The translations under genes were made by a program, and so were the position numbers. DNA of 64,000 nt from an uncultured Candidatus Saccharibacteria bacterium. Its GTDB lineage: Bacteria > Patescibacteriota > Minisyncoccia > UBA6257 > WO2-44-18. Under the pieces are notes generated by a model. That model was not told the origin of the DNA. It was given only the letters and a program-made list of their open reading frames with translations, and made no database searches. Shown piece after piece: positions 7,835 through 34,530 of this stretch. The number at the start of each line of letters is the position of its first letter. Positions within the stretch are counted from its first letter, which is position 1. The stretch is from contig CAYIBZ010000002.1 in NCBI GenBank assembly GCA_964361795.1, forward strand, positions 9,362-73,361. The letters are read 5' to 3'.

Positions 7835-7836
7835 GA

Positions 7837-16598: not shown

Positions 16599-17501
16599 TT
16601 AATTAAACTCTAAGAGATCATTCGCGTCGTAACGAGGAATAAAAAATTTGCTATCTTGAGCTGTAATCGAACGCCGATCAATAGTAACTGCGTATCGAAA
16701 ACCAGCTCTATCTAATAGTTCGACGGCTTCCGCCGCATAACGACCATGCGGATAGGAAAAAACATCTACTTCTTTTCTTAAAAGATCGTCCAATTTTTTT
16801 TTAGAATTCCGTAAATCAATTAACGCGTCATTCATGGACAATAGCTCAAAAGAATTATGGTTATGTGAATGGCTGCCAATTGCCATACCTTGGGAAGCCA
16901 ACTTTTTAACCTCATTAGAATTCATAAACAAAATCCGGCATAAATTATTTTCGTCTAAATTGAATTTTTTAAAATAAAAATCTAAAAATTTCTCCCTAAC
17001 GGCATCTGGCAAAATAATCATCGTCTCTTTAAAATTATTTGTCAGCATATCTCCATGTTTACGACGAAAATCGATGCTATGATCTTTCGGAATCGCATAG
17101 CTTTCGCCCGCCCAATTATTAAAAAGATCGATTAATTCTTCTGGGGAGGAACGAGAAAATAGCACGTGGAGTTTATGAGTCAGTGACACCTTAAATTCAA
17201 AAGTAGAGGTGATAATAAAAAAAGTCCCGGTAGCGCTATATTTTTTCAAAATCGGCAAGGCATTTTCGAAATTATCTTTGAAACCGTCATCAAAGGTAAG
17301 CGCACAAAACTTACCATCTACCCCGTTTTTAGCCGCTTCATAAACCTCTGAAACAGAAACAATTTTAAAATTTTCCGATAACAATTTTATCTGCCGGTCA
17401 AATTCGGCAATTGGGCAGGGATGAATACCTAACCAATCAGGACTGGGGTCACGAACATAGTGATAATTGACCACTATATATCGGTCGTTTAAAGCCGGCA
17501 T
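16599..17501 (-). CDS. polysaccharide deacetylase (NodB-homology domain)
   Basis: LTFDDGFKDN motif (TFDDG) and downstream His motifs (HSHNH). Confidence 0.65.
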   Translation of the reverse strand: MPALNDRYIVVNYHYVRDPSPDWLGIHPCPIAEFDRQIKLLSENFKIVSVSEVYEAAKNGVDGKFCALTFDDGFKDNFENALPILKKYSATGTFFIITSTFEFKVSLTHKLHVLFSRSSPEELIDLFNNWAGESYAIPKDHSIDFRRKHGDMLTNNFKETMIILPDAVREKFLDFYFKKFNLDENNLCRILFMNSNEVKKLASQGMAIGSHSHNHNSFELLSMNDALIDLRNSKKKLDDLLRKEVDVFSYPHGRYAAEAVELLDRAGFRYAVTIDRRSITAQDSKFFIPRYDANDLLEFN

Positions 17502-18820
17502 TTTTCAATTAAATCTACGCTTCTTCTATAAGATTGTCCATCGGTGAATTCAGCATAATTATGGACAACCCACTCTCTTGCCTCACTATCCAACGAGGGA
17601 TTCTCTAAGTACATATTAATAAATTTCGGCAAGTCGGCATCTTCTTTGGCCAATCTTATCGCTCCGCTTTGGAAAATCGGCCGGTAATGCTCAAAGTCAT
17701 AGGCTAGAGCAAATCGGTCAATGAATCCAATATTAATAATCGGCTTGTTAAACACGCAGGCCTCAATGGAAATAGTTGATGCATAATTAATATTCAAATC
17801 AGTGTATTCTAAAGAACGTTTCAAATTAAATAAATCGTCAATATTCATTTCTGTCTCGCCATCAAAATTTTTTCCGGCTCTTTCTATGCAAAGGTCTGGA
17901 ACATTAAAAAATTCCTGATAGTTTTCGTAGATGTCTAAGGGGTGAATCCTGATAAAAAAGTTTACATATGGAATTTTTCTAGCGTCACGCAATGAAATCA
18001 AATCACGAATATATTTTTTTTGAAAAGGGTAGGCCTTAGTAACCGTAGTGTGGAAAATGGTTTTATAATCTGGGTTGAGTCCCTTAGATTTAAGAAAAGT
18101 GTCCCGGCCGGGATTATTTTTATCCTCAATAAAATAAGGATCAAAACGAGGCGCTCCGGATACAAAAACCTTATCCGGGGAATACTTATGAATCGTCTCT
18201 GCTTCTTTTTTCATAATCGTATTCCAGGCAATCAAAAAATCCGTTTTTCTAATGTGTTTAGCGTTAGTGGTGAGGTTGTCCCAACTAAAATCTACAGCCA
18301 CTGTGGTTAACTTCAATCTTTTGGCGAATGTAATTAATTCAGCTTCCCAAGAATCAAAACCGGGAGTGGAAACAATTAAATGGTCAGGATGGTATTGGTT
18401 TGCCAATTCAAAAAAGCTTTTAGACTTAGGCAACAACCAAGATTCAAGTTTCGTGAAAAAATTTGCGGTTAAAAATCGAGAAAACGGACGACCAAAAAAG
18501 CGTAAAATTCTCCGTTTCCTGTTCTTTAAATAATTGGGACGCTTATACCAATGTTGCAGTGACCTCAGATAATCAAATTCGTTCACTAAGCTGATTCTTA
18601 GAAGTTTAAAAAAAATCCAAAAATTAGGATTCTCCAAATTTTTGCGAACATAAACAATTGTGGGCGTTTTGTAGTAATTCAAATGAGTCGCCGCTTCAGG
18701 GTCTAAAAAGGGCGCGAGAACCACTACTCGATATTTTTGAGAAAGATATTTTAAGTATTCGGTCCTAAGAAGATCTCCGCTGGCAACAAAATTAGGGATC
18801 GCTAAAAAAACTGTTTTCAT
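17489..18820 (-). CDS. TagB/TagF-like CDP-alcohol phosphotransferase family protein, paralog 2 of 4
   Basis: Collinear with 10675..11988 (MKTVFL..., VFVSGAPRFDPYF, IFHTT, IRIHPL). Confidence 0.45.
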   Translation of the reverse strand: MKTVFLAIPNFVASGDLLRTEYLKYLSQKYRVVVLAPFLDPEAATHLNYYKTPTIVYVRKNLENPNFWIFFKLLRISLVNEFDYLRSLQHWYKRPNYLKNRKRRILRFFGRPFSRFLTANFFTKLESWLLPKSKSFFELANQYHPDHLIVSTPGFDSWEAELITFAKRLKLTTVAVDFSWDNLTTNAKHIRKTDFLIAWNTIMKKEAETIHKYSPDKVFVSGAPRFDPYFIEDKNNPGRDTFLKSKGLNPDYKTIFHTTVTKAYPFQKKYIRDLISLRDARKIPYVNFFIRIHPLDIYENYQEFFNVPDLCIERAGKNFDGETEMNIDDLFNLKRSLEYTDLNINYASTISIEACVFNKPIINIGFIDRFALAYDFEHYRPIFQSGAIRLAKEDADLPKFINMYLENPSLDSEAREWVVHNYAEFTDGQSYRRSVDLIEKCRL

Positions 18821-19776
18821 TTAAACAAATTCTTAATTTCTCTAGCCACCAGGCTGGCTATATAAATTTGCGTTCTTTCAGTGGCTTCTTGAGTAGCTCC
18901 TCCTAGGTGGGGCACAATAAGCAAATTTTCGTAATTTTTTGCGTGTGTCACTAGGGGATTTTTTAATAAATGACCGCCATCGGGTGATTCGTCAGATAGC
19001 GTATCGACAGCGGCGCCGGCAATCCATTTATTGCGCAAAGCTTTCAAGAGCGCATTTTCATCTGTTATCTCCCCGCGAGCAGTGTTAATAAATATTGATC
19101 CCGATTTCATCATCCTAAAATGTTTATCACCTAACAACTTATAAGTTGTATCATTATAAATTGCGTGCAAAGAAACAATATCAGACTTTTTTAATAAATT
19201 CTCCAATGTTTCTTTCTTAACCCCGCAATAATTCATTTCTGTTCCGCCAATAAAAGGGTCGTAAGCAACAACCTTCATGCCAAAAGCAAAACTATAATGA
19301 GCAACCATTTTCCCTAATCGGCCAAAGCCAATCAGGCCAATGGTTTTCCCTTGTAATTCCTTACCGCCGTATTTTTTCCTTTCCCATTCGCCTCTTTTTA
19401 TTGAATCAAAAGCCCAGGAAATTCTGCGCAACAACGATAAGATTAAAGCCATAGTCTCCTCGGCGGTTGAAAAAGTTTTCTGGAGCGTAGTGGAATTAGC
19501 TTTTATATTCACTACTTTGATGCCGCGTCGGCGGCATTCTTCCAAATCAATATAGCGCAATTGAGTGGTGCGGGTACCAACTAATCGCAAGCATTTCGCC
19601 AGATCTAAAATTGTTTTATCCAACTTTACTTCTAATGCCGTAACAATAACATCAGCTTTGGGTAAATTTCTAAGAAAAGTTTCACTGGATTGAAAATCAA
19701 TCACATGCCCCAATTTAGTAAGAACTTTCTTGGCTTTTTCACTAAAGTCCTTCTCGGCAATTAAAATGTTCGGCAT
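18817..19776 (-). CDS. D-isomer-specific 2-hydroxyacid dehydrogenase (NAD-binding)
   Basis: GKTIGLIGFGRLGKMVA NAD-binding motif. 319 aa, typical PGDH/GyaR-like fold signature. Confidence 0.7.
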   Translation of the reverse strand: MPNILIAEKDFSEKAKKVLTKLGHVIDFQSSETFLRNLPKADVIVTALEVKLDKTILDLAKCLRLVGTRTTQLRYIDLEECRRRGIKVVNIKANSTTLQKTFSTAEETMALILSLLRRISWAFDSIKRGEWERKKYGGKELQGKTIGLIGFGRLGKMVAHYSFAFGMKVVAYDPFIGGTEMNYCGVKKETLENLLKKSDIVSLHAIYNDTTYKLLGDKHFRMMKSGSIFINTARGEITDENALLKALRNKWIAGAAVDTLSDESPDGGHLLKNPLVTHAKNYENLLIVPHLGGATQEATERTQIYIASLVAREIKNLFK

Positions 19777-19780
19777 ATTT

Positions 19781-20503
19781 CTATTTTATATTTTCTATTT
19801 TTTTCAATAATATTTCTGCTATTTCCCAATCAAAAGCGTCATTTATATCGTGAGCGGTCGCCGGCTCAACGGGCAATCCAACACGCTTGCCAACCTCCAT
19901 TTTATTTTCTTTCAAAAATAAATCCCGTCTAAACCAATAGATGTTTGCAAAAGCGTAACGTTTTGGATCGGACTGACGCGTTGGATGCCGATAATGCAGT
20001 TCCGATTGATCAAATTCTAAAAACCCATCCGAAGTGAGATGACGAATATGATAGGGATGAAATGGTCTTGGAGTTTCAACAATAGTAATGCCGGAATCAG
20101 CTGAATAATGATCTATCAGATTCATAAGATCGTCAATTTGTTTAGTTTGTATAAATGGCGATGTGGGTTGAATCATTAAAACAAAATCAGGTTGGTAATT
20201 TTCTTTTTCTGCTAGCCATTCTAGGGCGTGACGAATGACTGGCAGCATCGACGTTGAATCTTGGGCCAACGTCGCCGGTCTTAAAAATGGCGCTTCAGCG
20301 CCCCATTTTTTGGCAATTTCTGCGATTTCCTGGTCATCAGTGGTAACAATTACTTTACCAACAAATCGGCTACGCTTGGCCGCTGCAATGGCATAAGCAA
20401 TCAATGGTTTTCCGCCCAGCAGACGGATATTTTTTCGCGGCAGAGATTTGGAACCGCCACGCGCTGGAATGATCGCCACAAATTTTTTTTGAACAGCGGC
20501 CAT
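19781..20503 (-). CDS. acylneuraminate/CMP-sugar cytidylyltransferase family (NeuA/KdsB/PseF-like)
   Basis: AIIPARGGSKSLPRKNIRLLGGKPLIAYAI is the hallmark of the CTP_transf_3 family. Confidence 0.65.
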   Translation of the reverse strand: MAAVQKKFVAIIPARGGSKSLPRKNIRLLGGKPLIAYAIAAAKRSRFVGKVIVTTDDQEIAEIAKKWGAEAPFLRPATLAQDSTSMLPVIRHALEWLAEKENYQPDFVLMIQPTSPFIQTKQIDDLMNLIDHYSADSGITIVETPRPFHPYHIRHLTSDGFLEFDQSELHYRHPTRQSDPKRYAFANIYWFRRDLFLKENKMEVGKRVGLPVEPATAHDINDAFDWEIAEILLKKIENIK

Positions 20504-20520
20504 AATATTTTTACAACTAA

Positions 20521-20550
20521 TAAAAAACCCACTTTGTTTCCCAAAGTGGG
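20521..20550 (-). terminator. intrinsic terminator downstream of the SQD1-like gene
   Basis: CCCACTTTG-TTTC-CCAAAGTGGG, a 9-bp stem. Plus-strand AAAAAA at 20522-20527 gives a T-tract on the minus strand. Confidence 0.55.
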
Positions 20551-20557
20551 CAATGAA

Positions 20558-21742
20558 TTATTTTCGATTCCAGGGAATGCGCGGCTGGATAATAGTGATG
20601 TCAATCAAATCTCTGACATTCATAATTTCTTTCAGCATGGAATTAACTAATTCTTCGGAGAGTTTAATCGGCTTCAATCCTAGTTTCAGCAAGGATTCAT
20701 TGTTGGCATTATAGTAGTGCTCCTCTTTTTCAATTCGGGGATTAGGTAAATGATCAATACTGACTTTCAAACCAAGCTTAGCGCCTGCTTTCTGAACGGC
20801 CTCGGCCAGCTCAAGAACAGAAAATATCTCGGTGAACTGGTTGAGAACGCGGAATTCTGCCTCTTGGGCAGGATTCTCCACCGCCAAGGTAACGCACTGC
20901 AAAGTATCTCTAATGTTCAAAAATCCGCGCTTCTGTCCACCCTTGCCGTAAACGGTCAACGGGACACCAGCTACTGCTTGAACGCAGAAACGGTTTAGCG
21001 CCGTACCGAAGATGTCGTCGTAGTGAAAACTGGTCAAAAGACCCAGATGCAATTCGGTGCAATCTGTATGGATGCCATAAACAACGCCCTGGTTAAGGTC
21101 AGTGGCTCTTAAACCCCAAGTACGGCAGGCAAACTCGATGTTATGGCTGTCATGTACTTTGCTTAAGTGATAAAAAGACCCAGGACGTTTGGGATACAAA
21201 AGACGATCTTGCCGCCCTTTGTGTGCCACATTCAACCATCCCTCTTCAATATCTATGTTTGGCGTTCCGTATTCACCCATAGTCCCCAGCTTAACTAAGT
21301 GAGCACTAGGAACGTAACGTTTGATAGCAAATAGAAGATTAAGCGTGCCAACCACGTTATTTTTCTGTGTGAAAGCTGCCTTCTGTCGGCTAAACATCGA
21401 ATAAGGAGCTGATGGCTGTTCCGCGTAATGAATAACAGCATCTGGCCGAAACTCTTCAACAATCTTGAATAGGAATCGGTCATTCTCCGCTATGTCGCAA
21501 GCATAAATCTTAATTGTCTTACCGGTGACTTGCCGCCAAACACTGGCCCGTCTCTGCAGAGACGGTATCGGCCATAATGGCATGGAACCAAATTCAGCTT
21601 CCCAAACTCTTTTAGCCATGTTGTCCACAACTACCACATCATAGCCACGGTTGGATAAATGCATTGCTGTCGGCCATCCAAGGTAACCATCACCGCCAAG
21701 AATCATGATCTTCTTCACTTTGACTCCTTTTAAAAGTGCCAT
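20558..21742 (-). CDS. sqdB: UDP-sulfoquinovose synthase (SQD1/SqdB/Agl3-like)
   Basis: Long near-identical blocks to plant SQD1: GGDGYLGW, HLVKLGTMGEYGTPNIDIEEGW, FYHLSKVHDSHNIEFACRTWGLRATDLNQGVVYG, GTALNRFCVQAVAGVPLTVYGKGGQKRGFLNIRDTLQCV. Confidence 0.8.
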   Translation of the reverse strand: MALLKGVKVKKIMILGGDGYLGWPTAMHLSNRGYDVVVVDNMAKRVWEAEFGSMPLWPIPSLQRRASVWRQVTGKTIKIYACDIAENDRFLFKIVEEFRPDAVIHYAEQPSAPYSMFSRQKAAFTQKNNVVGTLNLLFAIKRYVPSAHLVKLGTMGEYGTPNIDIEEGWLNVAHKGRQDRLLYPKRPGSFYHLSKVHDSHNIEFACRTWGLRATDLNQGVVYGIHTDCTELHLGLLTSFHYDDIFGTALNRFCVQAVAGVPLTVYGKGGQKRGFLNIRDTLQCVTLAVENPAQEAEFRVLNQFTEIFSVLELAEAVQKAGAKLGLKVSIDHLPNPRIEKEEHYYNANNESLLKLGLKPIKLSEELVNSMLKEIMNVRDLIDITIIQPRIPWNRK

Positions 21743-21775
21743 TTCATTCTAACTGACATAATACAACTTTATCTA

Positions 21776-22972
21776 TTATTTACGCAATAGTCGCTGATCA
21801 AGGGTAACCCGCTTAAGAATTTCTACTATCTTTTCAGAAGATCGCCCGTCACCTAACCGATAACCACAACGACGTAAAGTGTTCTGGAATATAATGGTTG
21901 GAGACAAAACCAATTGCAACCCCATCTTAATAGAATTGATATCTGTGCCAACTTCAATCACATTTTCTTCACGATCTCGTCCACGTTGCCGATTTCCAGT
22001 ATTTAACGCTGGAACCTGAAAATAAGGCGCTTCAACAAACGCGGCAGAAGAATTGCCAATGATTGCTTTAGCCGACGCCATCAGACCCAAGAAATCCAGA
22101 TTATCTATATTCTTGTACGCCAAAAACTGTGTTGGAAAGTCTCGTAATGCTTCGTTAATGGCCAAAATAACGGACTGGTAGCCAGGGTCGGAACAGGGAT
22201 GTACAACCACCGCACGTAATCCGGTATCTCTAACGACAGAAAGAACGGCTTTCGCTGTCTGGTAATTCTCTTTCGCAGACTCAAAAGTGTCAGGATGAAA
22301 TATAATAATAAAATAATTTTCTCCATTCTTGAGGCCGTATTTTTCCATTGCCGCCTTCGGGTCGGTGTACATTTTTTTTACGATCCGATCGACATATAAA
22401 GAACCTACAATATGAATTTGATCCTCTTTCTCCCCTAACTCCCGGATTTTTTTAGCCGCTTTTTCGGTTTCTGGGAAATGAAGGTGGGCCAACTTAGTAA
22501 TTGCGTGTCGTTGAATATCATCAACATTCCCAGATGATTCACCTCCCTGGGTATGACCGACTGGGATGCCTAAGTTATTGGCGGCAAGAGCCATAATTAG
22601 ATGCTCGCCGCGATCACCGTGCACCATTAAAATATCTGGATTTAATTTTCTCAAAATTCTAGGAGCTTTACTAAGACACGTCGCCAAATTCTCCACTCGA
22701 ATCTCTGGAGTATCGCCGCGGCCCGTGCCCATTTCCACCGTCTCAATCTTAGAATTTGGGAAATAGCCTAAGGCTTCATTAAGAGTCCTGCCAAATTCCA
22801 CGGAAGCATGCATATCGCCGAGAATAATTTGCAATTCCAAATCTGGATCGGAAGCAACTAACTTCATAAATGGCATATAGGCGCCGAACCCGCCCCGCTT
22901 GCCAGAAAAGATCGCTATTCTTCTTGGTTGGCTCATATAGAATCTCCCAATATTTATCAAAAGACTAATCAA
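21776..22972 (-). CDS. UDP-N-acetylglucosamine 2-epimerase family (Epimerase_2; NeuC-like)
   Basis: ILMVHGDRGEHL and GNSSAAFVEAPYF motifs characteristic of the UDP-GlcNAc 2-epimerase family. Confidence 0.65.
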   Translation of the reverse strand: MISLLINIGRFYMSQPRRIAIFSGKRGGFGAYMPFMKLVASDPDLELQIILGDMHASVEFGRTLNEALGYFPNSKIETVEMGTGRGDTPEIRVENLATCLSKAPRILRKLNPDILMVHGDRGEHLIMALAANNLGIPVGHTQGGESSGNVDDIQRHAITKLAHLHFPETEKAAKKIRELGEKEDQIHIVGSLYVDRIVKKMYTDPKAAMEKYGLKNGENYFIIIFHPDTFESAKENYQTAKAVLSVVRDTGLRAVVVHPCSDPGYQSVILAINEALRDFPTQFLAYKNIDNLDFLGLMASAKAIIGNSSAAFVEAPYFQVPALNTGNRQRGRDREENVIEVGTDINSIKMGLQLVLSPTIIFQNTLRRCGYRLGDGRSSEKIVEILKRVTLDQRLLRK

Positions 22973-23017: not shown

Positions 23018-23320
23018 CTAATTACCGCCTGTTTTACTTGTATTCTGATTTGCTGAAACAAATTTATGATTAATCAGTTTTTCCAATCGGAATTTTCCCC
23101 AACGGATATTATTCCAAATCCGTTCGTGAAAAAAGAATATGACAGTAGCAATTATTTCTCTTACTAACACTACTTTTAATGAAATGCTGAAACTTCTAGT
23201 GAATAGCCAGGCGGCCGCAAAAGTATTTATCGTTCCAATCAGACGATGAGATATTGCTTTAACTACAGATCGGATTTTCCTTTCCTTTTCGCCTCTGATT
23301 ATTGGAATTGGATTCTCCAT
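23018..23320 (-). CDS. small membrane protein (DUF2061-like)
   Basis: 100 aa with two hydrophobic helices. No strand-overlap conflict. Weak family assignment. Confidence 0.3.
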   Translation of the reverse strand: MENPIPIIRGEKERKIRSVVKAISHRLIGTINTFAAAWLFTRSFSISLKVVLVREIIATVIFFFHERIWNNIRWGKFRLEKLINHKFVSANQNTSKTGGN

Positions 23321-24001
23321 TTAAAGTTTAGTGTGAAGGCCACATTCGCCGCCGACATTTTTTGTGCCGCCAAATCTGCCGGCGCGTTCAAATTGGCCTT
23401 GGCGTCCGCCGCCTTCACGAGTTTTACCAGAAGTAGTGCAAGGTTTACATCCCAAAGATAGATATCCTTTGTCGTAAAGAGGGTGATAGCTTAACTTATT
23501 TTCTTTTATATATTGCCACACATCGTCTTTGGTCCAAAAAGCAATGGGATTAATTTTGACAATTTTTCCAGTTTCGACCAGAGGAGTATTTTTGCGGTAT
23601 TCCGTTTCATCACGACGGAGTCCCGTAATCCAAGCGTCATATTTATTTAAAATGCTATTAATAGCGGGAATTTTCATTTCACAACACTTATATTGATCAT
23701 TTTTTATAAAAGATTCGCCGTACTCCTTATCGATTCTTGTTTTATCGTCCGAAGACGGCTTAACCCATTGGAAATTCATTCCTAATGTATTAACAAGAGA
23801 ATCTGCAAATTTCAGTGTTTCATCAAATTCATATCCCGTATCAATACCAATAAACTGGGCTACGGGATTCACTTGCATGGCAAGATCAACTAAAACACGA
23901 GAATCTTTACCAAAAGAACAGGCCACAAAAAGTTTCGGATAGGCTTGGGCTGATAATTTGATTATAGTTTTTGAGAGATCAACTTTTTCTTGAAGAGTCA
24001 T
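23321..24001 (-). CDS. cysH: adenylyl-sulfate / phosphoadenylyl-sulfate reductase (thioredoxin-dependent, Fe-S type CysH)
   Basis: Collinear with CysH: SFGKDS PP-loop, IDTGYEFDET, GLRRDE, KINP..W, YHPLYDKGYLSLGCKPCT and C-terminal ECGLH. CC...CxxC Cys pairs are typical of [4Fe-4S] APS reductases. Confidence 0.75.
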   Translation of the reverse strand: MTLQEKVDLSKTIIKLSAQAYPKLFVACSFGKDSRVLVDLAMQVNPVAQFIGIDTGYEFDETLKFADSLVNTLGMNFQWVKPSSDDKTRIDKEYGESFIKNDQYKCCEMKIPAINSILNKYDAWITGLRRDETEYRKNTPLVETGKIVKINPIAFWTKDDVWQYIKENKLSYHPLYDKGYLSLGCKPCTTSGKTREGGGRQGQFERAGRFGGTKNVGGECGLHTKL

Positions 24002-24109: not shown

Positions 24110-24823
24110 TTAATCTTTGTGAACTATAAATGAATTCCCGTGCCAAGAATATTTATGAAATTCCGAAACTTTAAGTTTCGGATTTTTATTTAACCACTCT
24201 GAAAAAGCCAGTTGCTCGCCGCGTTTGGGGCTACCTCGAAACAAATACCAGTCATCAAAAACTAAAATCGTACCGTCTACGAGATAGTCAGTAATGAAAT
24301 CCAAAACTGGTACAGTTGATTCGTATAAATCGCAATCTATCCAAACTACAGCCGCAGATTTTAACGGTAAAGTCTTTTTTGTTTTTGCGTTGAGAGTTTC
24401 ATTGAACCAGCCAGGAACTATTTCAACTTTATTTTCTTTCAAACCGGCCAAACGAAGAGTTTTTTTAAAAACATCCAAACTGGCGGTATACTCACCCTGA
24501 TTGAATTGCTTAAATTCGGAATCTTTCCCTTGGATCGCCGGCAAACCCCTAAAGGAATCAAATGCATAAAATTGCATATTATCTAATTTTTTGTTCTTCG
24601 CGGCCCATTTCATCGCCGCCGCAAAATTGCCGCCTTTAAAAACGCCAAATTCTAAATAATCCCCCCTTAATCTGGATTCGGCGCAATAATTCATAATTTT
24701 CCGCAAAATCTCGTTGCGATCTCGTTCTTTTGGGGCATAGTTCCGAAATAAAGCAAAACCGGAGTGACGTTTTTCAATCCAATCAAAAACCGGATTCAAA
24801 AAATATTTTTTAAATATACCCAT
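24110..24823 (-). CDS. TylF/MycF-family (macrocin-O-methyltransferase-like) sugar O-methyltransferase
   Basis: LEFGVFKGGN and WIDCDLYESTVPVLDF..ILVFDDW match the TylF-family SAM and metal-binding motifs. Confidence 0.6.
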   Translation of the reverse strand: MGIFKKYFLNPVFDWIEKRHSGFALFRNYAPKERDRNEILRKIMNYCAESRLRGDYLEFGVFKGGNFAAAMKWAAKNKKLDNMQFYAFDSFRGLPAIQGKDSEFKQFNQGEYTASLDVFKKTLRLAGLKENKVEIVPGWFNETLNAKTKKTLPLKSAAVVWIDCDLYESTVPVLDFITDYLVDGTILVFDDWYLFRGSPKRGEQLAFSEWLNKNPKLKVSEFHKYSWHGNSFIVHKD

Positions 24824-25040
24824 GCTTTTTTAATATTTTTTTAATGTCACCAACATTTTTCACTTGGGACATTTCTCCTAAATCAATTTTTAAGCCATAA
24901 TATCTTTCCAATTCTTCAATAAGTTTAAGACCGTTGAAAGAGTCCCAACTTGATAGGTTTTCCGGACTAGTCTGATCGTTAATTTTATCCGGCTTAACCC
25001 CAAATGTCTTGGCTAAAATTTCTTCCAATGGCTTTTTCAT
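24810..25040 (-). CDS. acyl carrier protein (phosphopantetheine-binding)
   Basis: 76 aa. SWDSFNGLKLIEELE matches the PP-binding DSL/DSF serine motif. Confidence 0.55.
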   Translation of the reverse strand: MKKPLEEILAKTFGVKPDKINDQTSPENLSSWDSFNGLKLIEELERYYGLKIDLGEMSQVKNVGDIKKILKKHGYI

Positions 25041-26845
25041 TCTATAATTTGATTAATTGGGTTCATTTCCGTATCCAAAGTCGATAGATCGCCAAGAGCC
25101 GAATGATTTTCCCAAGAACGCAGAACCCTCCTCATGATTTTGCCGCTTTTGGTTTTTGGTAATTTTTCAACAAACTCGATCTCGCGCGGCACTTCATGGG
25201 CCGCCAATCGCTCTTTAACAAAATTAGCGATCTCCGTCTTTAAATTTTCTGTGGGAGAAAAATTCGGTTTTAAAATTAAAAATGACTTTACGATATTACC
25301 ATAAATATGGTGCGGCTTTCCAACCACTCCCGCTTCAGCCACCGCTGGATGGGTAATTAAAGTGCTTTCGATTTCAAATGGACTGATCCGCTCTGCTCCG
25401 CTCTTAATCATGTCGTCTTCTCTTCCTTGAAACCAAAAATATCCGTCTTTATCTTGATAAGCCATATCACCGGATATATACCAGTTTTTCTCAAAATAAG
25501 AATCAAATTTTTTTTGATTATTCCAAACTGTTTTCATCAATCCCGGCCAAGGAGTTTTTATGGCCAATCGGCCTACCGTACCTGGCGGCAATTCAGCGGC
25601 TTTATTGTCTAGAATAGCGGCCACGATACCTGGCAGCGCTTTACCCATCGATCCCTTGCGGATTGGCAAACAAGGGTAATTATTGATGAGCTGATGTCCA
25701 TTTTCAGTCATGTACCAAGAATCGTGAATTGGGATGCCAAGTTTTTCCGTAGTCCATTCAATCAAACTAGGATTCAGGGGTTCGCCGGCACTAACAATAT
25801 GTCTCAATGATTTAGCCTGATGAATCGGCATTTGATAATAACGCAACAACCGAAAAGCTGTGGGCGTACTATACCAAACAGTTATTTTCCGCTTAGCAAG
25901 AAACTGAATCCAACTGGAAGGGTTAAATGGCCCTTCCAAAATATGCGCGGCTACGCCCAAAAGGAGCGGCGCAAAAAAATTGTAGACCATCCCCGTTACC
26001 CAACCCGGATCGCCGGTATTCCAATAATTATCTCTGGGGCGAAGGTCCAGCACGTACTTGGCGGTAACAAGATGTCCAATCATTGCGCGCTGTGAGAGTA
26101 ATATGCCTTTAGGTTTAGCTGTAGAACCAGAGGTATAATGGATAATAAACGGGGTTTCCAAATCGCCAAAATGAATGTCTAAACGATTGCCTTGATTTTT
26201 TAAATTCTCTAGTAAATCAAAAATATTGACCCCTAATACGCTATTATTTTTTACGTCAGCCGCCAAAATATTCTTTAGGGTAGGAATTTTAGAAAATGGC
26301 ACATTGGGCAACAATTTATCTGTAGTATAGATCCAAGTTGCTCCACAATCTTTAAGCCGATCCTCAATCGCGTCGGGACCAAACGCCTCAAAAAGCGGCA
26401 CAACAATCGCTCCGCATTTGACAGCGGCATGCAAAACATAAACATAGGCAATGGACTTAGGCGCGTATAAAGCGAATCGATCACCAGCTTTAAGGCCGGC
26501 TGCTTGAAGATTGGATGTCAAAATATCTGTATAATTAGAAAGCTGTTTAAATGTAATGCCATTAACCTTTTGGTCAGTAGACTGAAAAATAATCGCTTGT
26601 TTTTCGCCATTTCCCTTTTGAACCTGATAATTAGTAACTTCGTAAGCGTAGTTTACTTTCCCGGTCTTGTGCCAAGAAAACTCACCGTGCCACTTCTCCC
26701 ATGAAAATTCGGCGTATTCCTTTTGATAATCTCTTAAATTAGGTTGTGAGATCATGTTTTTGTATGAGGTTATTTTACATATAAAACCTTGAATTTTAAA
26801 GATTGTATTCAGTTCACTAAATCTAAAATAAAAAAGCCTACTCAA
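25037..26845 (-). CDS. AMP-forming acyl-CoA/acyl-carrier ligase (acetyl-CoA synthetase-like)
   Basis: HYTSGSTAKPKG AMP-binding motif. YWNTGDPGWVTGMVY resembles the Acs core. C-terminal PKTKSGKIMRR. 4-nt overlap with the ACP gene downstream. Confidence 0.75.
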   Translation of the reverse strand: MSRLFYFRFSELNTIFKIQGFICKITSYKNMISQPNLRDYQKEYAEFSWEKWHGEFSWHKTGKVNYAYEVTNYQVQKGNGEKQAIIFQSTDQKVNGITFKQLSNYTDILTSNLQAAGLKAGDRFALYAPKSIAYVYVLHAAVKCGAIVVPLFEAFGPDAIEDRLKDCGATWIYTTDKLLPNVPFSKIPTLKNILAADVKNNSVLGVNIFDLLENLKNQGNRLDIHFGDLETPFIIHYTSGSTAKPKGILLSQRAMIGHLVTAKYVLDLRPRDNYWNTGDPGWVTGMVYNFFAPLLLGVAAHILEGPFNPSSWIQFLAKRKITVWYSTPTAFRLLRYYQMPIHQAKSLRHIVSAGEPLNPSLIEWTTEKLGIPIHDSWYMTENGHQLINNYPCLPIRKGSMGKALPGIVAAILDNKAAELPPGTVGRLAIKTPWPGLMKTVWNNQKKFDSYFEKNWYISGDMAYQDKDGYFWFQGREDDMIKSGAERISPFEIESTLITHPAVAEAGVVGKPHHIYGNIVKSFLILKPNFSPTENLKTEIANFVKERLAAHEVPREIEFVEKLPKTKSGKIMRRVLRSWENHSALGDLSTLDTEMNPINQIIE

Positions 26846-27785
26846 CAGTAGGCTCGTCAGAATAATTTATAATGTCATATTCAATCGCCTTCATTAGGGC
26901 ATAAAGTGTCTCATTCACGGGTACAGAGATTTTGTGCTTACTTGCTAAACGGACTACGGTGCCAACAAAGCTCTCAAATTCGAGCTTTCGTTTACGAATT
27001 CTCACATCTCTTTGAGTTGAACTCACATAGGCGCCAAAAGATTTCCCGGATTCTAAAACATCTGCGCAATCTTTCGGAGTCAAAATCACCCCTTCTTTAT
27101 TACCGACATTAACAACTTCCAAAATCAAAGCTGATAGTATTTGAGCAGATTCTGGACACTCATGAAAACGATTGAAAGGCAAATTACAAACTGCCGTAGG
27201 AATATTGATAGTACAATTCCATAAGAACTTTTTCCACATCGCCTTGCGAATATCAGGTGCATTAAATGAAGGAATGCCGGACGTTTTAAAAATTTTATTA
27301 ATTGCCGTTACCCGACCGGTAATCTCACCGCTCCATTCTCCAAAATTAATTTCGCCTTTATCTTTGTGACGTACAAATCCCTGTTTATCGACTGAAACGC
27401 CAACTAATGTAAGACCGGGCAAAACCCGTTCAGGACCGATTACAGAACTAATCTTTCCCGCGTTATCAATGCCATTTTGAATTGTTAGTACCGTAGTATT
27501 TTTACCAACCGCTGATTTAATCGCCTGAGCCGCTTCTTCGGTGTCGTAAGATTTCACTGTAAACAATATAAAGTCAGCTTCTGGCAAACCAACTAAAGAT
27601 TCGTAAATCTTAATTGGGTAAATATCAAAATCGCCCTTCATACTACGAACCCTAACGCCATTCTTACGGAAATGAACTAAATTCTGTCCTCTAGTAATGA
27701 AAGTAACATCAAACTTAGCTCGCGCTAATAGCGCGCCGAAATACGCGCCAACTGCTCCGGCACCCATAACGTAGATTCTATCCAC
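26838..27785 (-). CDS. 2-dehydropantoate 2-reductase family (PanE/ApbA-like ketoacid reductase)
   Basis: N-terminal IYVMGAGAVGAYFGALLARAKFDVTFITRG. 315 aa ApbA/ApbA_C architecture. Confidence 0.65.
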   Translation of the reverse strand: MDRIYVMGAGAVGAYFGALLARAKFDVTFITRGQNLVHFRKNGVRVRSMKGDFDIYPIKIYESLVGLPEADFILFTVKSYDTEEAAQAIKSAVGKNTTVLTIQNGIDNAGKISSVIGPERVLPGLTLVGVSVDKQGFVRHKDKGEINFGEWSGEITGRVTAINKIFKTSGIPSFNAPDIRKAMWKKFLWNCTINIPTAVCNLPFNRFHECPESAQILSALILEVVNVGNKEGVILTPKDCADVLESGKSFGAYVSSTQRDVRIRKRKLEFESFVGTVVRLASKHKISVPVNETLYALMKAIEYDIINYSDEPTVE

Positions 27786-27847: not shown

Positions 27848-29188
27848 TCAAGTCCACCTTGATCGTTCAAGTAAGAACTCGGCAATTCTTTTACCTGATT
27901 GACCGTCAATTTTATAGCATTGCTCTTTAACAAATTTAGATCTTTGCTCCCAATCGGCTTCGCTATTGCGAATGTAAAATTCAATTTTCCTTAATAAATC
28001 CTCTGGACTTTTAGCCAACTTGAAAGAGCCGCTTTCATAAACCCTGCGAACATGATTAAAATCCAACCACCGCGCGACACTTTTCATGTATGGGCGCTTT
28101 TCCAATCCGTCAAAACCAATCAAAATAACCGGTTTTTTAAAAATTGCCGCGTCAATGCCAATCGTTGCTCCGCCAACAACAGCAACATCGCAGTTGGCCA
28201 AACAATCCGCAAGCCAATTTAAGTCCGCTATATCCAATTCCTGATCGCGGGAAATTCCTGGCTTAAACTGGTAACCAGGTTTATCAATAAAACATTTATT
28301 ATTTGGAATGAAACCGTCTAATGAAACTTCATCATTAGGCGTCAATCTTATTAAGATCTGATAACCAGAGTTCTTAAGTATTTCCATAAAGTGCCAATCT
28401 ATATCCCAAAAACGTTTACCATTGGGAGAAAATAAAATTAATTTTTGACTAGGATTTAAATTAATCTTTTTGAAAAAAGCTTCCCGAGAAGTGCGCACAC
28501 CGGTAAAATAATGATCGAATTGCGGAATGCCACTAATAAAAATATCTCTTGGTCTCATCCCTCCAAAACGCATAGCCTCATCATGAATTATCTCATTGTG
28601 AACGATAAGTTTATCGGGTTTAACGCGAAAGAACCCCTTAGTGGTAAAGTTGTCCCAAGATCGGATCATGCCAACCGTACCTTTTTTAAATTTTTTGGCC
28701 GCTGCTAAAAACTTAATATCATAATCATTAAAAATATCTGTAGCAAAAATCAAATCTGGTTGGTATTTTTCAAAATATTTCACAATTGGCCGATAATTTA
28801 TCGTCCACAAATCTGCTAATCTTACAGCTCTTTTTATAAAACCGAGGTGGCTAAAAAATTTCAAAAATACAATGGATATCAAAAATTTCAATACTTTTCC
28901 TTTCTCCCAATAACGCTCCCGATTATGAATTAACAAAGTACGGCTGTCTGCCAATACGCTTCCCAAAAAACGGAACAGAGTGTCCTGGCGAGAAAACGAA
29001 ATAGAATCAATACCTTCAATAGAAATTCGATTGTCGCTATATCTCTTTACAAAGTAATCAACTTTGTAGTCAGGAACCAAAATAATAATCTTGATATCCG
29101 AATTAGCCTTAAGAAAATTAAAAGCGTCAGTAGATAAAATATTCCTAGAAATAAAAGGATTAAAGGCGGTTATAAAAATTGTTTTCAT
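27848..29188 (-). CDS. TagB/TagF-like CDP-alcohol phosphotransferase family protein, paralog 3 of 4
   Basis: Collinear with the other three paralogs (MKTIFITAFNPF..., IFISGIPQFDHYF, LILFSPNGKRFW). Confidence 0.45.
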   Translation of the reverse strand: MKTIFITAFNPFISRNILSTDAFNFLKANSDIKIIILVPDYKVDYFVKRYSDNRISIEGIDSISFSRQDTLFRFLGSVLADSRTLLIHNRERYWEKGKVLKFLISIVFLKFFSHLGFIKRAVRLADLWTINYRPIVKYFEKYQPDLIFATDIFNDYDIKFLAAAKKFKKGTVGMIRSWDNFTTKGFFRVKPDKLIVHNEIIHDEAMRFGGMRPRDIFISGIPQFDHYFTGVRTSREAFFKKINLNPSQKLILFSPNGKRFWDIDWHFMEILKNSGYQILIRLTPNDEVSLDGFIPNNKCFIDKPGYQFKPGISRDQELDIADLNWLADCLANCDVAVVGGATIGIDAAIFKKPVILIGFDGLEKRPYMKSVARWLDFNHVRRVYESGSFKLAKSPEDLLRKIEFYIRNSEADWEQRSKFVKEQCYKIDGQSGKRIAEFLLERSRWT

Positions 29189-29631
29189 TTTCTAGGAAAA
29201 TTAATCCTATAAAAGTTTGTTTCCACTTTCATAAAACCCATGGATTGATACATTTTGTTAGCATCCACTCGCTTAGGATTAGTGCGCAAACTAATATGTT
29301 TAGCGCGCTTTTTTTGGGCAATATCAATAGCTTTTTCTATTAAAATTCGCCCTAGTCCCCAAGCCCGATAAGGCGCGTCAACAATCAGATCTTCGACTTC
29401 AGCAATAATGCCGGTCGGAATTTTTGTTAGATAGACAATTAAAGATGCCGCTATCACGCCTTTGCTTCTAATCGCCAAAAGATAAAAATCTTTCTGGGAT
29501 AGCATCTTTTTAAGATAACTCAAAGACGTCGGCTTAGGCGCCGTTGCCGTTAAACTTAATTGCGAAGTCAGATAATTAAGCTGACTCAAGACCGATTTAG
29601 CGGCTTTTTTTAAGATTTTAACTTTAAACAT
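29185..29631 (-). CDS. GNAT family N-acetyltransferase
   Basis: RAWGLGRILIEKAIDIA acetyl-CoA binding motif (R/Q-x-x-G-x-G/A). 148 aa. Confidence 0.65.
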   Translation of the reverse strand: MFKVKILKKAAKSVLSQLNYLTSQLSLTATAPKPTSLSYLKKMLSQKDFYLLAIRSKGVIAASLIVYLTKIPTGIIAEVEDLIVDAPYRAWGLGRILIEKAIDIAQKKRAKHISLRTNPKRVDANKMYQSMGFMKVETNFYRINFPRK

Positions 29632-30435: not shown

Positions 30436-32586
30436 CTACTTTAAAAAACTGCTTGGTTTAAATAAATCCCAAGGATTATAAACGAATTCCACTTCATGGG
30501 TTCCAGCCGGGACAAAAATACCCATAAAAACGGTGTTTACTGAATAAATTGGAACTTCCGAATCATCGATCAATGCTTTCCATCCCGGCAAAAAGTTTTG
30601 AGAAAATACTAAAAATTGTTTTTCGTTGGAATTAACAGCCAATTTGATAAAAGAATTCTCTTTTTCTTTAATTGTTATTTCTCCGTCACCCACCCTAAAA
30701 GTTTCTGACTGGCAGGATGGACAAACCACAAAAGTGTCTTTAAAACCATTGTCACGCCAGGAGTTGAAAGCCAATTCCTCATTTTGAGAAAAAATCACCT
30801 TCTCGGAAAAATAAACCGCCGGTTTCGCCTCTGGATTAATATATAAGAGAGCTCTGGGAATATGTTTTTTACCGTTAATATTCACTGCCATAAAATCAAA
30901 TTGAACAAATTCTCCGGTTTGAGGAAGGCTTACGTCATAAGCTTCCAGCTTAAAACCGCTAAAAATGTATTTAATCCCCAAAAAATCAAGTAGGGGCTTT
31001 CTCTTATTAAACAATAAATGAATCAGTTCGTTTGGCGTAATATCGTGCTTTGTTAATTTCTCTGCAAGATCAATGTTGATCTGCCTTGCGCCTATCCATC
31101 CTAAAAGACGGGCGACATTGAAAGGGATTAAAGAATCGTAAAGTTCTGACGAGGGTATGCCATATAAAAGATTCAAATTCGGATGAAACGACTCGAGATC
31201 AAAGAGAAGTTCCTCATTAGGTTTATCGGGTAGCGGAGATTTAGGACCGAAAGCATAAACAAAGAAACGATAATTATCCGCAAGTGGGGAAAAGACAATC
31301 CCCGGAGGCAATTTTTTAAACATTCGAACGCTCTCGGGTAATTTTTCCACCAAAGCTCTCGGAAATTCTTTGAAAACAGCGCTAAAATTTATTGCAAAAT
31401 CTATAATCAACAAAATGATTAAAATCAAAAACCATTTTTGATTTTTTATTTTAGCCAAAAAATGTTGCGCTCCAAAAGCGGCCATTGTCGCCGCCGCAAA
31501 AGATCCGATGAACATAAAACGAGAAGGGCCGCGGAAAAAACTGAAAATAGGAAGGTGCTGAAAAAACCAAAAAAGCGGCGAATAATGAAAACTGGTCAAC
31601 AAGGCAATAATAAAAAGCCACTTAAAGAACCTTAGGGTCTTGTCTTTTCTGAAAAAAGACGCCGCCATAAACAAAAACGGAATTAATCCCATGTAAACAT
31701 AGGCATCGCCTCCGCCTTGTAATGGGTAAAAAAACCGCAATAGGTCAATCGGCTGAAGGCCACCGCCTCCGCCGCTTAACCCTTCTTGATATGATAAACC
31801 GCCGCTCCTGCCTGAAGATTGGGTCAGAATAAAGGTAGGAATCAACTGAATTAATCCAACAAGGCCGCCGATAAAATTGATAAGAATAAAGAATAAAATT
31901 AATTTTTTCCAACTCTTTTTGCGGATCCCCAAATACAGCGTAAATCCCAAAGCGGCTACGAGAGCGTAAAATGGTTGCCAGTAAGTTGTACCGGAGACAA
32001 ATCCAAAAGCGATAGTGGCAGACCCTGCCAATAAATAACCGACCCAACCTTCACCGCTTTGAACTTTTTTATTAACCCTCCAGATTATCAGAAATAAAAG
32101 AGGAAGAATTAGAGTGCCTGCCGCGCTCATAGTAGTATCCAAATAATGCAGTTCAGCGATGAAGAATGCTATTCCCCCGATCAAAGGCGCTAAAACACCA
32201 AGATCTAATGCGATCAAAAATTCAAACATGAAAAACAGCGCCAGAACTAGCGTGATAAAAAAAACCGCGTGATATGCATCAATTGGCGAAAAAATCCTAA
32301 GAAAAACTTGCGTCAGAGGAGAAAAAAATTGGATAGCGCTAGCAAACATTGGGAAACCACCGCCGTTCAGCGGATTCCAAAATGGACTTTCTCCGCTTGT
32401 CCAGGAATCTTTGATAAAGGTCCAGCTGGATATAACATACTCCAGTGAATCTCCAATAAGGATTTTTTGTCCGATTAGAAGCGGCCAAAATATCAACAAC
32501 ACCAAAAACGTCGCAACTAGGAGTCGTTTCCACCAACGATTGAAAATTTTTTCAAGAACTAATTGCATTTTCGTTTGAGAACACAA
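30436..32586 (-). CDS. large polytopic membrane protein with C-terminal extracytoplasmic domain (YfhO/GT-C-like, putative)
   Basis: 716 aa. About 12-14 hydrophobic helices in the N-terminal 400 aa, then a soluble C-terminal domain. Topology resembles lipid-carrier-dependent glycosyltransferases. No diagnostic motif verified. Confidence 0.35.
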   Translation of the reverse strand: MCSQTKMQLVLEKIFNRWWKRLLVATFLVLLIFWPLLIGQKILIGDSLEYVISSWTFIKDSWTSGESPFWNPLNGGGFPMFASAIQFFSPLTQVFLRIFSPIDAYHAVFFITLVLALFFMFEFLIALDLGVLAPLIGGIAFFIAELHYLDTTMSAAGTLILPLLFLIIWRVNKKVQSGEGWVGYLLAGSATIAFGFVSGTTYWQPFYALVAALGFTLYLGIRKKSWKKLILFFILINFIGGLVGLIQLIPTFILTQSSGRSGGLSYQEGLSGGGGGLQPIDLLRFFYPLQGGGDAYVYMGLIPFLFMAASFFRKDKTLRFFKWLFIIALLTSFHYSPLFWFFQHLPIFSFFRGPSRFMFIGSFAAATMAAFGAQHFLAKIKNQKWFLILIILLIIDFAINFSAVFKEFPRALVEKLPESVRMFKKLPPGIVFSPLADNYRFFVYAFGPKSPLPDKPNEELLFDLESFHPNLNLLYGIPSSELYDSLIPFNVARLLGWIGARQINIDLAEKLTKHDITPNELIHLLFNKRKPLLDFLGIKYIFSGFKLEAYDVSLPQTGEFVQFDFMAVNINGKKHIPRALLYINPEAKPAVYFSEKVIFSQNEELAFNSWRDNGFKDTFVVCPSCQSETFRVGDGEITIKEKENSFIKLAVNSNEKQFLVFSQNFLPGWKALIDDSEVPIYSVNTVFMGIFVPAGTHEVEFVYNPWDLFKPSSFLK

Positions 32587-33486: not shown

Positions 33487-34530
33487 TTATTTCCTTCTTC
33501 GGCTTTGCGCCAACAGAACCTTAAAAAACTGCCAATAACTAGTTCGGGAATTTCTAATCAAATCACCGATAGTAGTTTCTTGAAAATATTTTTCCATATC
33601 TTTTAAGCGAGTATAGGAAATGTGGGGATCCCAATGATGGAGCATGTGACGATTAAAGCCAGCAGATCCAAATGATTGAGAAAACCAATCGTCGCCGAAT
33701 AATCGAAGAGTGGCGCCATGAGGAATTTTAAAATAGTCGGCTTCCGGATCGGCATTCTCGCTGCGGTGTCTCAAGATCTGCCGAATGGTTCCCAAGAATG
33801 GCCAGAAAATAACCACGCCAAGAAACCAGGCAGCGGCCGCTGCGTAATTACCAAAGCTGATCAAAAATATAAGAATAGCGGACTGAACTACGACCAAACG
33901 AGCGGGATTTTTCCATTTAAGGACTTTTTTGACAGGTGACGATATTTCGGCGGTTTCTAGTTCAGAATAGTGGAAAATGGTTTTTAAGGCATGGATTGCG
34001 GTAATAGCTCGGAGCAAAAAAGATGGCTTTAAAGCATTAAAATAAGACTGTTCAGTATCTTGCAGCGAACCGAGATATAAATGATGAGGCCAATGAATTT
34101 TTCTATAAGATTCAACACTAGTAAAAAGCAATGGGCAAATCAGCCAATTGCCTAAAATATCGTTCCAACGACGATTGGGATGAATGTTAAAATGCACCGC
34201 CTCATGTAAAAACAAACTCAAAGAATGCAGCCAATAACCAATCCACATTCCGGAAAAAATTGAGGCAATCAAAGCGGCGGGAAAGCTTAAAATCGGCTGG
34301 ATAAAAATAATTGCGCCAACGCCCAATAATAAAAGAAAATAACAAACAAAAACATCTCGCCACACTATCAGGTATCTCGGCTTAAGCTGTTTGCGGAACT
34401 CGGGCCAAGAAACCGGCAAGTGGACGCTCATTTTTTCTAAATCTGGGGTCCCAGGAAGGCCTGAACGGTATTCAAGAAAATTAATGTCATCCACACTACA
34501 CATCTTATAGAAAATAGACCTCAAAAACAA
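33487..34530 (-). CDS. membrane fatty-acid desaturase/hydroxylase family protein (di-iron His-box)
   Basis: Three His boxes: HEAVHFNIH, HWPHHLY and HMLHHW. Multiple TM helices. Confidence 0.6.
   Translation of the reverse strand: MFLRSIFYKMCSVDDINFLEYRSGLPGTPDLEKMSVHLPVSWPEFRKQLKPRYLIVWRDVFVCYFLLLLGVGAIIFIQPILSFPAALIASIFSGMWIGYWLHSLSLFLHEAVHFNIHPNRRWNDILGNWLICPLLFTSVESYRKIHWPHHLYLGSLQDTEQSYFNALKPSFLLRAITAIHALKTIFHYSELETAEISSPVKKVLKWKNPARLVVVQSAILIFLISFGNYAAAAAWFLGVVIFWPFLGTIRQILRHRSENADPEADYFKIPHGATLRLFGDDWFSQSFGSAGFNRHMLHHWDPHISYTRLKDMEKYFQETTIGDLIRNSRTSYWQFFKVLLAQSRRRK

Follow-up and report, generated by a model that had tools for sequence, protein, structure and literature searches.

A predicted Acs-derived ligase and a stand-alone acyl carrier protein in a surface-glycan operon of a Saccharibacteria genome

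A ligase gene coupled to an acyl carrier protein gene

The DNA analysed here, referred to as the window, is a stretch of 64,000 nucleotides from an uncultured Candidatus Saccharibacteria bacterium (GenBank assembly GCA_964361795.1, contig CAYIBZ010000002.1, positions 9,362 to 73,361 of the forward strand). Within a long run of glycan genes it encodes an AMP-forming ligase, apparently derived from acetyl-CoA synthetase (Acs), and beside it a small acyl carrier protein (ACP). Open reading frames (ORFs) of the window were scanned with Pfam and NCBIfam models, the remaining ORFs of about 140 aa or more with Pfam; Rfam and tRNA scans of the 64 kb gave no matches. The pair and its immediate neighbours are as follows.

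24110..24823, minus strand: TylF-like S-adenosylmethionine (SAM) O-methyltransferase (PF05711, 78.6 bits; PF13578, 37.7 bits)
24810..25040, minus strand: stand-alone acyl carrier protein, 76 aa (PF00550, 25.7 bits; cutoff 20.8)
25037..26755, minus strand: predicted Acs-derived AMP-forming ligase, 572 aa from the ATG at 26755 (PF00501, 216.7 bits; PF13193, 79.8 bits)
26800..26772, minus strand: promoter-like site, upstream of the ligase ATG and after the hairpin
26834..26855, minus strand: terminator-like hairpin and U-run, exactly at the stop of the PanE-like gene (ΔG −14.1 kcal/mol, z −3.57)
26838..27785, minus strand: PanE/ApbA-family NAD(P)H 2-oxoacid reductase (TIGR00745, 255 bits; cutoff 141)

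The ORF at 24810..25040 is a true acyl carrier protein. In addition to the Pfam match above cutoff, an AlphaFold2 model built from the single sequence (predicted local distance difference test score 84.7) showed four helices, with Ser34, the predicted phosphopantetheine attachment site, lying in W-D-S-F at the N-terminus of helix II. Foldseek searches with this model returned ACPs only, at a template modelling score of about 0.8 and root-mean-square deviations of 1.2–2 Å. The initial annotation of this DNA, made from the letters alone, had called a stand-alone 76-aa ACP with a DSF serine and had made that identity depend on conservation of the serine; the residue, within W-D-S, was invariant in 11 of 11 homologues from related loci, and it aligned with Ser36 of E. 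coli AcpP. The top PDB match of the family profile was 2lml, a 'putative acyl carrier protein' (E 3e-14), followed by dozens of bona fide ACPs including many AcpP. Entry 2lml, for which function is likewise putative, is the best solved relative of the family and shares its A/S-W-D-S motif; it may be Geobacter GmACP3. With the housekeeping AcpP models TIGR00517 and PRK00982 the window protein scored 16–27 bits against cutoffs of 66–92, indicating that it is not the housekeeping AcpP.

The ACP is translationally coupled to the ligase: an ATGA is common to the ligase stop and the ACP start, which bears out the 4-nt overlap described earlier. At its 3′ end the ACP gene overlaps the TylF-like methyltransferase gene by 14 nt. 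A further overlap had been claimed between the ligase and the PanE-like gene, and this proved to be an artefact of starting the ligase at an upstream TTG (26845, 602 aa). The 30 additional residues have no homologue, and the TTG lies inside the stem of the hairpin. All 38 homologues of the ligase clade described below start a few residues ahead of a conserved PNL-DY motif, which corresponds to ATG 26755, and the same codon was chosen when an identical metagenomic contig (L016) was annotated independently.

Starting at ATG 26755 leaves a gap of 82 nt between the two genes. Because this gap is accompanied by the terminator-like hairpin, which none of 200 shuffled sequences matched in stability, and by the promoter-like site, the two genes probably belong to separate transcription units, the PanE-like gene ending one and the ligase, ACP and methyltransferase genes opening the next. 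A hairpin and T-run at the stop of the PanE-like gene were seen in all three loci that carry the gene. In L015 (about 9920..9945) the stem was the same, and in L001 (about 9935..9965) its sequence was different; the structure of this junction is thus conserved and its sequence is not.

Clade and acyl pocket of the ligase

The ligase carries the P-loop-like motif HYTSGSTAKPKG and the motif PKTKSGKIMRR with the catalytic lysine, and together with its PF00501 and PF13193 domains these place it in the ANL superfamily, as the earlier description of an Acs-like AMP-forming ligase implied. Its best NCBIfam match was the Bacillus/archaeal-type acetate–CoA ligase AcsA (NF003313), at 677.7 bits and under the curated cutoff of 729, and it was 49% identical over the full length to the solved AcsA 9g79. 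Relatives were collected from a set of 5.8 billion proteins and by an exhaustive search of 1.84 billion representatives clustered at 50% identity. In the former, 37 cluster representatives were 61–70% identical to the ligase, and the next proteins, at about 50%, were Bacillales acetate–CoA ligases. In the latter, the clade appeared as a single representative (63%), with all other single-domain representatives at 44% or less. Identity within the clade ranged over 59–89%, versus 42–52% between the clade and AcsA. In a scan of one genome per species, the matching genomes were metagenome-assembled genomes (MAGs) of Patescibacteria, the Candidate Phyla Radiation (CPR), from Saccharibacteria and Magasanikbacteria, and some genomes labelled Gammaproteobacteria.

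Pocket residues were compared in an alignment of 38 clade members and 82 AcsA sequences, numbered as in Salmonella enterica Acs by HMMER alignment to Acs structures. At the acetate-pocket positions V310, T311, V386 and W414 the window ligase has V, T, A and Y, with the further changes T418N and T412S. A386 and Y414 occurred in 38 of 38 clade ligases and position 418 was N in 36 and Q in two, versus V386, W414 and T418 in all 82 AcsA. Among the 50 further nearest single-domain families, position 414 was W, F, G, C, S or V, and the combination A386, Y414 and N418 was absent from the representatives of all 50. Experiments have identified Trp414/416 as the residue that determines which acyl groups Acs accepts and that limits it to acetate (PMC10455477). 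Clade-specific changes were also found at positions of the pantetheine tunnel, namely S523A, G524A (28 of 38) and G528S.

The enzyme therefore differs from AcsA in its score below the cutoff, in A386/Y414/N418 in place of V/W/T, in the frequent replacement of the tunnel glycine by alanine, and in neighbours that are ACP and phosphopantetheinyl transferase (PPTase) genes instead of AcuABC. It shares with AcsA the ANL core motifs, the catalytic lysine, R526, V310 and T311. Firm clustering with bona fide acetyl-CoA synthetases, which had been named as the outcome that would speak against a carrier-loading role, was not observed: judged by its score, its separate clade and its altered pocket, the ligase appears to be an Acs-derived enzyme of a distinct clade and no ordinary acetate–CoA ligase. 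The predicted pocket is somewhat larger and more polar than that for acetate and much smaller than a Gly pocket, and for this reason it would favour a C2–C4 acid, plausibly one with a hydroxy or oxo group.

The CoA-contact arginines were also considered as a means of discriminating between CoA and ACP as acceptor, and were set aside. R191 and R194 lie in an insertion that is also missing from Bacillus-type AcsA, and at position 584 the clade ligases and AcsA alike have either K or R.

Linkage to the carrier and to interchangeable partners

Loci containing clade ligases were gathered by exact-protein look-ups, by the scan of one genome per species and by a metagenome scan, the last of which contributed just four loci. 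After removal of duplicates, 12 distinct loci with usable flanks were available, the window counted among them. An ACP homologue lay within 4 kb of the clade ligase in all 12, immediately downstream in five, immediately upstream in one, divergently adjacent in three and 1.9–3.8 kb away in three. In 10 of the 12 an AcpS-type PPTase was encoded no more than 5 kb from the ligase gene; the window and L015, the locus most closely related to it, were the exceptions. No ACP accompanied the two nearest outgroups of the AcsA type, whose neighbours were an AcuA-like GNAT and an AcuC deacetylase, in housekeeping contexts. Occurrence of the ligase without a nearby ACP, which the initial annotation had named together with such clustering as speaking against its proposal, was seen in none of the 12 loci.

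Domain scans of the ORFs found no ketosynthase (KS), acyltransferase (AT), FkbH-like loader or second adenylating enzyme in the window, so that the ligase is the only candidate loader of the ACP there. No fab or fatty-acid-synthase genes were found in the window either. The lack of KS and AT genes points to carrier loading and not to fatty-acid synthesis, in line with what had been proposed.

These data bear on the possibility that the ligase is a plain short-chain acyl-CoA synthetase for acetate or propionate, feeding the GNAT and other CoA-dependent acyltransferases, with the ACP serving another enzyme or being adjacent for historical reasons. Its score with the AcsA model, its identity to the solved AcsA and the conserved catalytic lysine and R526 would all be expected of such an enzyme. 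The best-scoring Salmonella entry was the engineered V386A mutant 2p2b, and V386A alone is the classical propionate-accepting change in Acs. In addition, acyl-CoA is the normal donor for GNATs, and AcsA genes too adjoin a GNAT. A plain synthetase would not account for the ACP in 12 of 12 loci, the PPTase in 10 of 12 and the translational coupling, nor for a window that holds no other candidate loader of the ACP. W414Y, T418N and the tunnel changes G524A and G528S are specific to the clade, and the window GNAT is unrelated to AcuA. On balance we regard this explanation, the leading alternative, as unlikely.

The PanE-like gene was less firmly attached. A 2-ketoacid reductase of the PanE/ApbA family had been predicted, and the TIGR00745 score leaves that family assignment in place. 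Across the entire collection the protein has just three close relatives, at 100, 72 and 59% identity, all of them adjoining a clade ligase, and further relatives are generic family members at 46% identity or less. With relatives so few and confined to three loci (the window, L015 and L001), the reductase is best regarded, from its distribution, as a recruited accessory and no fixed member of the module. Of the three-gene module first described, the ligase–ACP pair therefore stands, and the reductase, found in three of the 12 loci and split off by the terminator-like element, does not belong to its core. The TylF-like methyltransferase accompanies the PanE-like gene in all three.

A genuine ketopantoate reductase, supplying pantoate for the phosphopantetheine cofactor of the ACP, would also score above the TIGR00745 cutoff and stand alongside an ACP. 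The alignment shows conservation of K72, N98, K176, N180, N184, S244, D248 and E256 of the E. coli ketopantoate reductase KPR, which we take to be its catalytic or substrate-binding residues, and in L001 a gene of the ICL/PEP-mutase superfamily precedes the PanE-like gene. All PanE equivalog models, however, scored under their cutoffs (best 193 bits versus 252), and no PanB, PanC or CoA genes occur in the locus. The PanE family also includes general D-2-hydroxyacid dehydrogenases. Moreover, the three close relatives all lie inside these glycan loci, and the gene co-varies with the methyltransferase and not with the PPTase. A role in pantoate supply thus seems very improbable.

Other partners replace the PanE-like gene elsewhere. 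The GNAT of the window and one of the alternative partner enzymes are listed here.

29185..29631 (window), minus strand: small GNAT acyltransferase, candidate enzyme for the last step, in which the acyl group passes to the glycan or a sugar amine (PF00583, 43.9 bits)
L003 11739..12797; L014 8925..9977; L013 12263..13318; L011 11695..12768; L017 4632..5708: inositol-3-phosphate-synthase-like (MIPS-like) enzyme

The MIPS-like protein is a divergent NAD enzyme (TIGR03450, 261 bits; cutoff 638) and adjoins the clade ligase in five loci, all of which lack the PanE-like gene. MaoC-type hydratases are partners in L005, L011, L017 and L019, with a FabG-like reductase of the short-chain dehydrogenase/reductase (SDR) family alongside in L005. 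Like the PanE-like reductase with its intact catalytic set, these are enzymes of acyl-group chemistry, which speaks for the loading role proposed below. GNAT-domain proteins were found beside the ligase–ACP pair in seven of the 12 loci: a 148-aa type in the window, L015, L001 and L014, and types of 310–350 aa, adjoining the ACP, in L001, L005, L009 and L010. The window GNAT lies where the initial annotation had placed it. As an AcuA-like regulator of the ligase it was rejected, since it does not resemble the AcuA proteins encoded in the outgroup loci.

Since the partners differ between loci and the pocket is identical, no single acid would fit all contexts. An attempt to name the acid from gene context failed for the same reason.

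The glycan locus and a proposed acylation route

Between 16.6 and 34.5 kb, minus-strand genes follow one another in a single long series, overlapping slightly or separated by small gaps. From the methyltransferase onwards, the order in the direction of transcription is methyltransferase, GNAT, TagF/BFO_1060-like transferase, PanE-like reductase, the terminator-like break, ligase, ACP and TylF-like methyltransferase. There follow a phosphoadenosine phosphosulfate (PAPS) reductase, a DUF2061 protein, a NeuC-like hydrolysing 2-epimerase (300.9 bits, above cutoff), a UDP-sulfoquinovose-synthase-like SDR and a PseF-like cytidylyltransferase, and then a D-2-hydroxyacid dehydrogenase, a second TagF/BFO_1060-like transferase and a polysaccharide deacetylase. 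The remaining window encodes glycosyltransferases, sugar-nucleotide enzymes, methyltransferases, two radical-SAM enzymes and a flippase-like protein. Three genes of the operon matter for what follows.

16599..17501, minus strand: polysaccharide deacetylase at the 3′ end of the operon (PF01522, 84.4 bits), with orthologues in L014 and L015
18817..19776, minus strand: D-2-hydroxyacid dehydrogenase, phosphoglycerate-dehydrogenase (PGDH)/glyoxylate-reductase-like (PF02826, 174 bits; TIGR01327, 235 bits, below cutoff)
27848..29188, minus strand: TagF-like/BFO_1060-like transferase, between the GNAT and the PanE-like gene (PF04464, 23.9 bits; NF046086, 34.4 bits)

The dehydrogenase, whose presence had also been noted in the initial annotation, could be a supplier of hydroxy acid. 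The deacetylase may uncover a sugar amine that is then re-acylated; it is the only obvious means of freeing an amine in the window. Four paralogous transferases of the TagF-like (PF04464)/BFO_1060 family are encoded on the minus strand, at 10675..11988, 17489..18820, 27848..29188 and 39214..40569, and they fit the BFO_1060 nonulosonic-acid-transferase family better than TarF. The BFO_1060 and Tanf_01245 proteins are nonulosonic-acid transferases of Tannerella (PMC5420450).

The nature of these transferases is relevant to a comparison with DltA and DltC that the initial annotation had drawn. The comparison holds at the level of function, in that an adenylating enzyme would load a small dedicated carrier for decoration of a surface polymer. 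It does not hold at the level of descent or of the accompanying genes. The ligase is of the Acs type, with no DltA model in its best 25 NCBIfam matches (lowest 165 bits; TIGR01734 cutoff 559.85), no MBOAT/DltB or DltD was found in any window ORF of at least 140 aa, and an amino-acid substrate is unlikely. A truly Dlt-like system, in which the pair would serve the extracellular esterification of a TagF-built teichoic-acid-like polymer by an amino or hydroxy acid, could point to the four TagF-like genes, to the similar logic of carrier and ligase, and to a true DltA-like adenylation enzyme with a carrier in the related locus L001. Given the ligase type, the missing DltB and DltD and the better match of the TagF-like genes to BFO_1060, we consider such a system quite improbable.

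The DltA-like enzyme of L001 belongs to a second, separate carrier module (4646..8883, plus strand), directly upstream of the PanE-like gene. This comprises an AcpS PPTase, the DltA-like amino-acid adenylation enzyme (TIGR01733, 381 bits), an 83-aa carrier-like ORF with a DSF motif and no Pfam match, a 349-aa GNAT-domain protein and the ICL/PEP-mutase-superfamily enzyme. With such a module present in L001, the Acs-like pair stands out all the more as a system of another kind.

Taken together, the data suggest that the ligase–ACP pair is probably the dedicated loading module of a surface-glycan operon, acting in ACP-mediated acylation of the glycan, possibly one of the nonulosonic-acid type, with a polar C2–C4 acid. 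The substrate adenylated by the ligase would be a small carboxylic acid exceeding acetate in size or polarity, most likely a C3 (C2–C4) hydroxy- or oxo-acid (lactate, glycerate, glycolate or pyruvate, for example), which the ligase would transfer as a thioester to the phosphopantetheine arm at Ser34 of the ACP, instead of or in addition to CoA. In the window and its two closest relatives, the PanE-family reductase may make the D-2-hydroxy form, acting on the free 2-oxoacid or on the carrier-bound acyl group, and O-methylation, either of the acyl group or of a hydroxyl on a sugar, is a possible role for the TylF-like methyltransferase. The neighbouring GNAT would then probably move the acyl group to an amine of a sugar precursor or of the glycan, an amine that the deacetylase may have exposed, after which the TagF/BFO_1060-like transferases would install the sugar. 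Candidate products are N-lactyl, N-glyceroyl and N-glycolyl groups or their O-methylated versions. The earlier suggestion of a short or hydroxy acid activated onto the ACP for transfer to a sugar is therefore supported as regards loading of the carrier; the type of acid and the acceptor are put forward here as the likeliest candidates.

Several observations weigh against this assignment. The ligase retains every CoA-thioester residue of Bacillus-type AcsA (R526, the K609 motif and K/R584) and, being 49% identical to a real acetate–CoA ligase, could still form acyl-CoA. The putative transferase is of a type that usually takes acyl-CoA. No PPTase was found in the 64-kb window (tblastn with four AcpS queries; Pfam scans of ORFs of about 140 aa or more) or in L015. 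The PanE-like gene occurs in just a quarter of the loci, with a terminator-like hairpin standing between it and the ligase, and the partner enzymes vary by locus (PanE-like, MIPS-like or MaoC/FabG-like) while the ligase pocket is constant. On the side of the acceptor, no NeuB was found in the window (tblastn with two queries; Pfam scans of the remaining ORFs), and no sugar aminotransferase was found there either. NeuB was found in L001, L005 and L011.

Modules that combine an ACP and a ligase in a glycan locus are already known, and the window has the features of such a cassette: a stand-alone ACP, an adjacent ligase, a polysaccharide locus and acyl-tailoring oxidoreductases. What is new is the Acs origin of the loader, the diagnostic pocket, the modular partners and the confinement, so far, to CPR-like MAGs. 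A close parallel in arrangement is RfbK/RfbL of Vibrio cholerae O1 (wbeK/L, perosamine-tetronate), where a stand-alone ACP lies by an adenylating ligase in an O-antigen locus with reductases nearby. RfbL is proposed to activate 2,4-dihydroxybutanoate and to attach it to CoA or to the carrier RfbK, as a short hydroxy acid with which an amino sugar would be N-acylated (PMC12208996). RfbL falls among the AasS-type ligases (PMC12208996), whereas the window ligase appears to be derived from Acs; the partners there are of the LuxC/LuxE type and here of the PanE, MIPS or MaoC type, and the host here is a CPR-like MAG.

Group II flagellin glycosylation islands of Aeromonas similarly combine an ACP, a 3-oxoacyl-ACP reductase and an AMP-dependent synthetase in pseudaminic-acid loci, where they too are biochemically uncharacterised (PMC7874193). 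The ligase and reductase families differ, those here being a re-tooled AcsA and a PanE-type reductase, and the Aeromonas islands carry LuxC/LuxE in addition. The order of events proposed above resembles that of the Nod and Lpx pathways in having a deacetylase, a specialised ACP and an acyltransferase, here in one glycan operon. In NodF/NodB/NodA and LpxC/LpxD the logic is to deacetylate and then to N-acylate from acyl-ACP. Those systems transfer fatty acyl chains made by enzymes of the fatty-acid-synthase type, in contrast to the short, ligase-loaded groups proposed here, and their transferase families are unrelated. Similar cassettes of ACP, reductase and AMP-synthetase are also known from Campylobacter and Pseudomonas.

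Short acyl groups other than acetyl are established constituents of bacterial nonulosonic acids. Tannerella carries N-glyceroyl on Pse5Am7Gra and possibly N-glycolyl on legionaminic acid, and its investigators state that the enzymes making and attaching short non-acetyl N-acyl groups are largely unknown (PMC5378307). Pseudaminic acid of C. jejuni bears di-O-methyl-glyceric acid and propionyl derivatives (PMC3068675). Such groups (glyceroyl, glycolyl, lactyl, hydroxybutyryl, di-O-methyl-glyceroyl) shape antigenicity and recognition by hosts and phages. The A386/Y414/N418 signature and the strict linkage to ACP and PPTase make the pair a compact, testable candidate for a pathway of this kind, and the clade would be a natural case of the Acs scaffold being re-specified. 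The locus also suggests that CPR-like bacteria with reduced genomes use carrier-protein chemistry solely to decorate surface glycans.

A broader possibility, which we raise only tentatively and with distinctly lower confidence, is that this is the first Acs-derived enzyme to use ACP in place of CoA, and the core of a swappable toolkit for making short acyl N-substituents in Patescibacteria. In such a toolkit the ligase, ACP and PPTase would be invariant, and PanE-like, MIPS-like, FabG/MaoC, methyltransferase and GNAT parts would be exchanged, giving hydroxy-, oxo- or O-methyl-acyl groups (lactyl, glyceroyl, hydroxybutyryl) on nonulosonic acids and amino sugars. To our knowledge, Patescibacteria are generally without fatty-acid synthesis.

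Other genes of the window suggest further features of the glycan. The NeuC-like epimerase, PseF-like cytidylyltransferase and PGDH-like dehydrogenase form a triad (18817..22972, minus strand) that recurs in five loci (the window, L001, L011, L014 and L015). Within it, the UDP-sulfoquinovose-synthase-like SDR (20558..21742, minus strand) scored 472 bits with NF041015, below the cutoff of 575, and an SQD1-like gene is also present in L015. Two genes from this SQD1-like SDR is the PAPS/adenosine phosphosulfate (APS) reductase (23321..24001, minus strand; NF002537, 186 bits, above cutoff), next to the DUF2061 membrane protein (23018..23320, minus strand). Because a supplier of sulfite adjoins an SQD1-like enzyme, this arrangement suggests a sulfonated, sulfoquinovose-like sugar in the glycan. 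Embedded in the glycan locus are a radical-SAM/SPASM enzyme (13043..14338, minus strand) and, in divergent orientation, a B12-binding radical-SAM methyltransferase of the KedN5 type (14501..16561, plus strand), a hint that a sugar may undergo C-methylation or another radical reaction.

At the 5′ end of the operon lie a membrane di-iron protein of the fatty-acid-desaturase/hydroxylase family (33487..34530, minus strand) and a YfhO-like GT-C membrane protein (30436..32586, minus strand). Beyond it, an unannotated protein of 569 aa (34943..36652, plus strand) is conserved in five related loci. A 709-aa ORF (7837..9966, minus strand) fuses an adh_short domain with a complete, three-domain UDP-glucose/GDP-mannose dehydrogenase. 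Just past the glycosyltransferase block, a protein of 1297 aa (50545..54438, minus strand) has a peptidoglycan-binding domain as its sole recognisable domain; it may be a large surface protein, and possibly a target of glycosylation.

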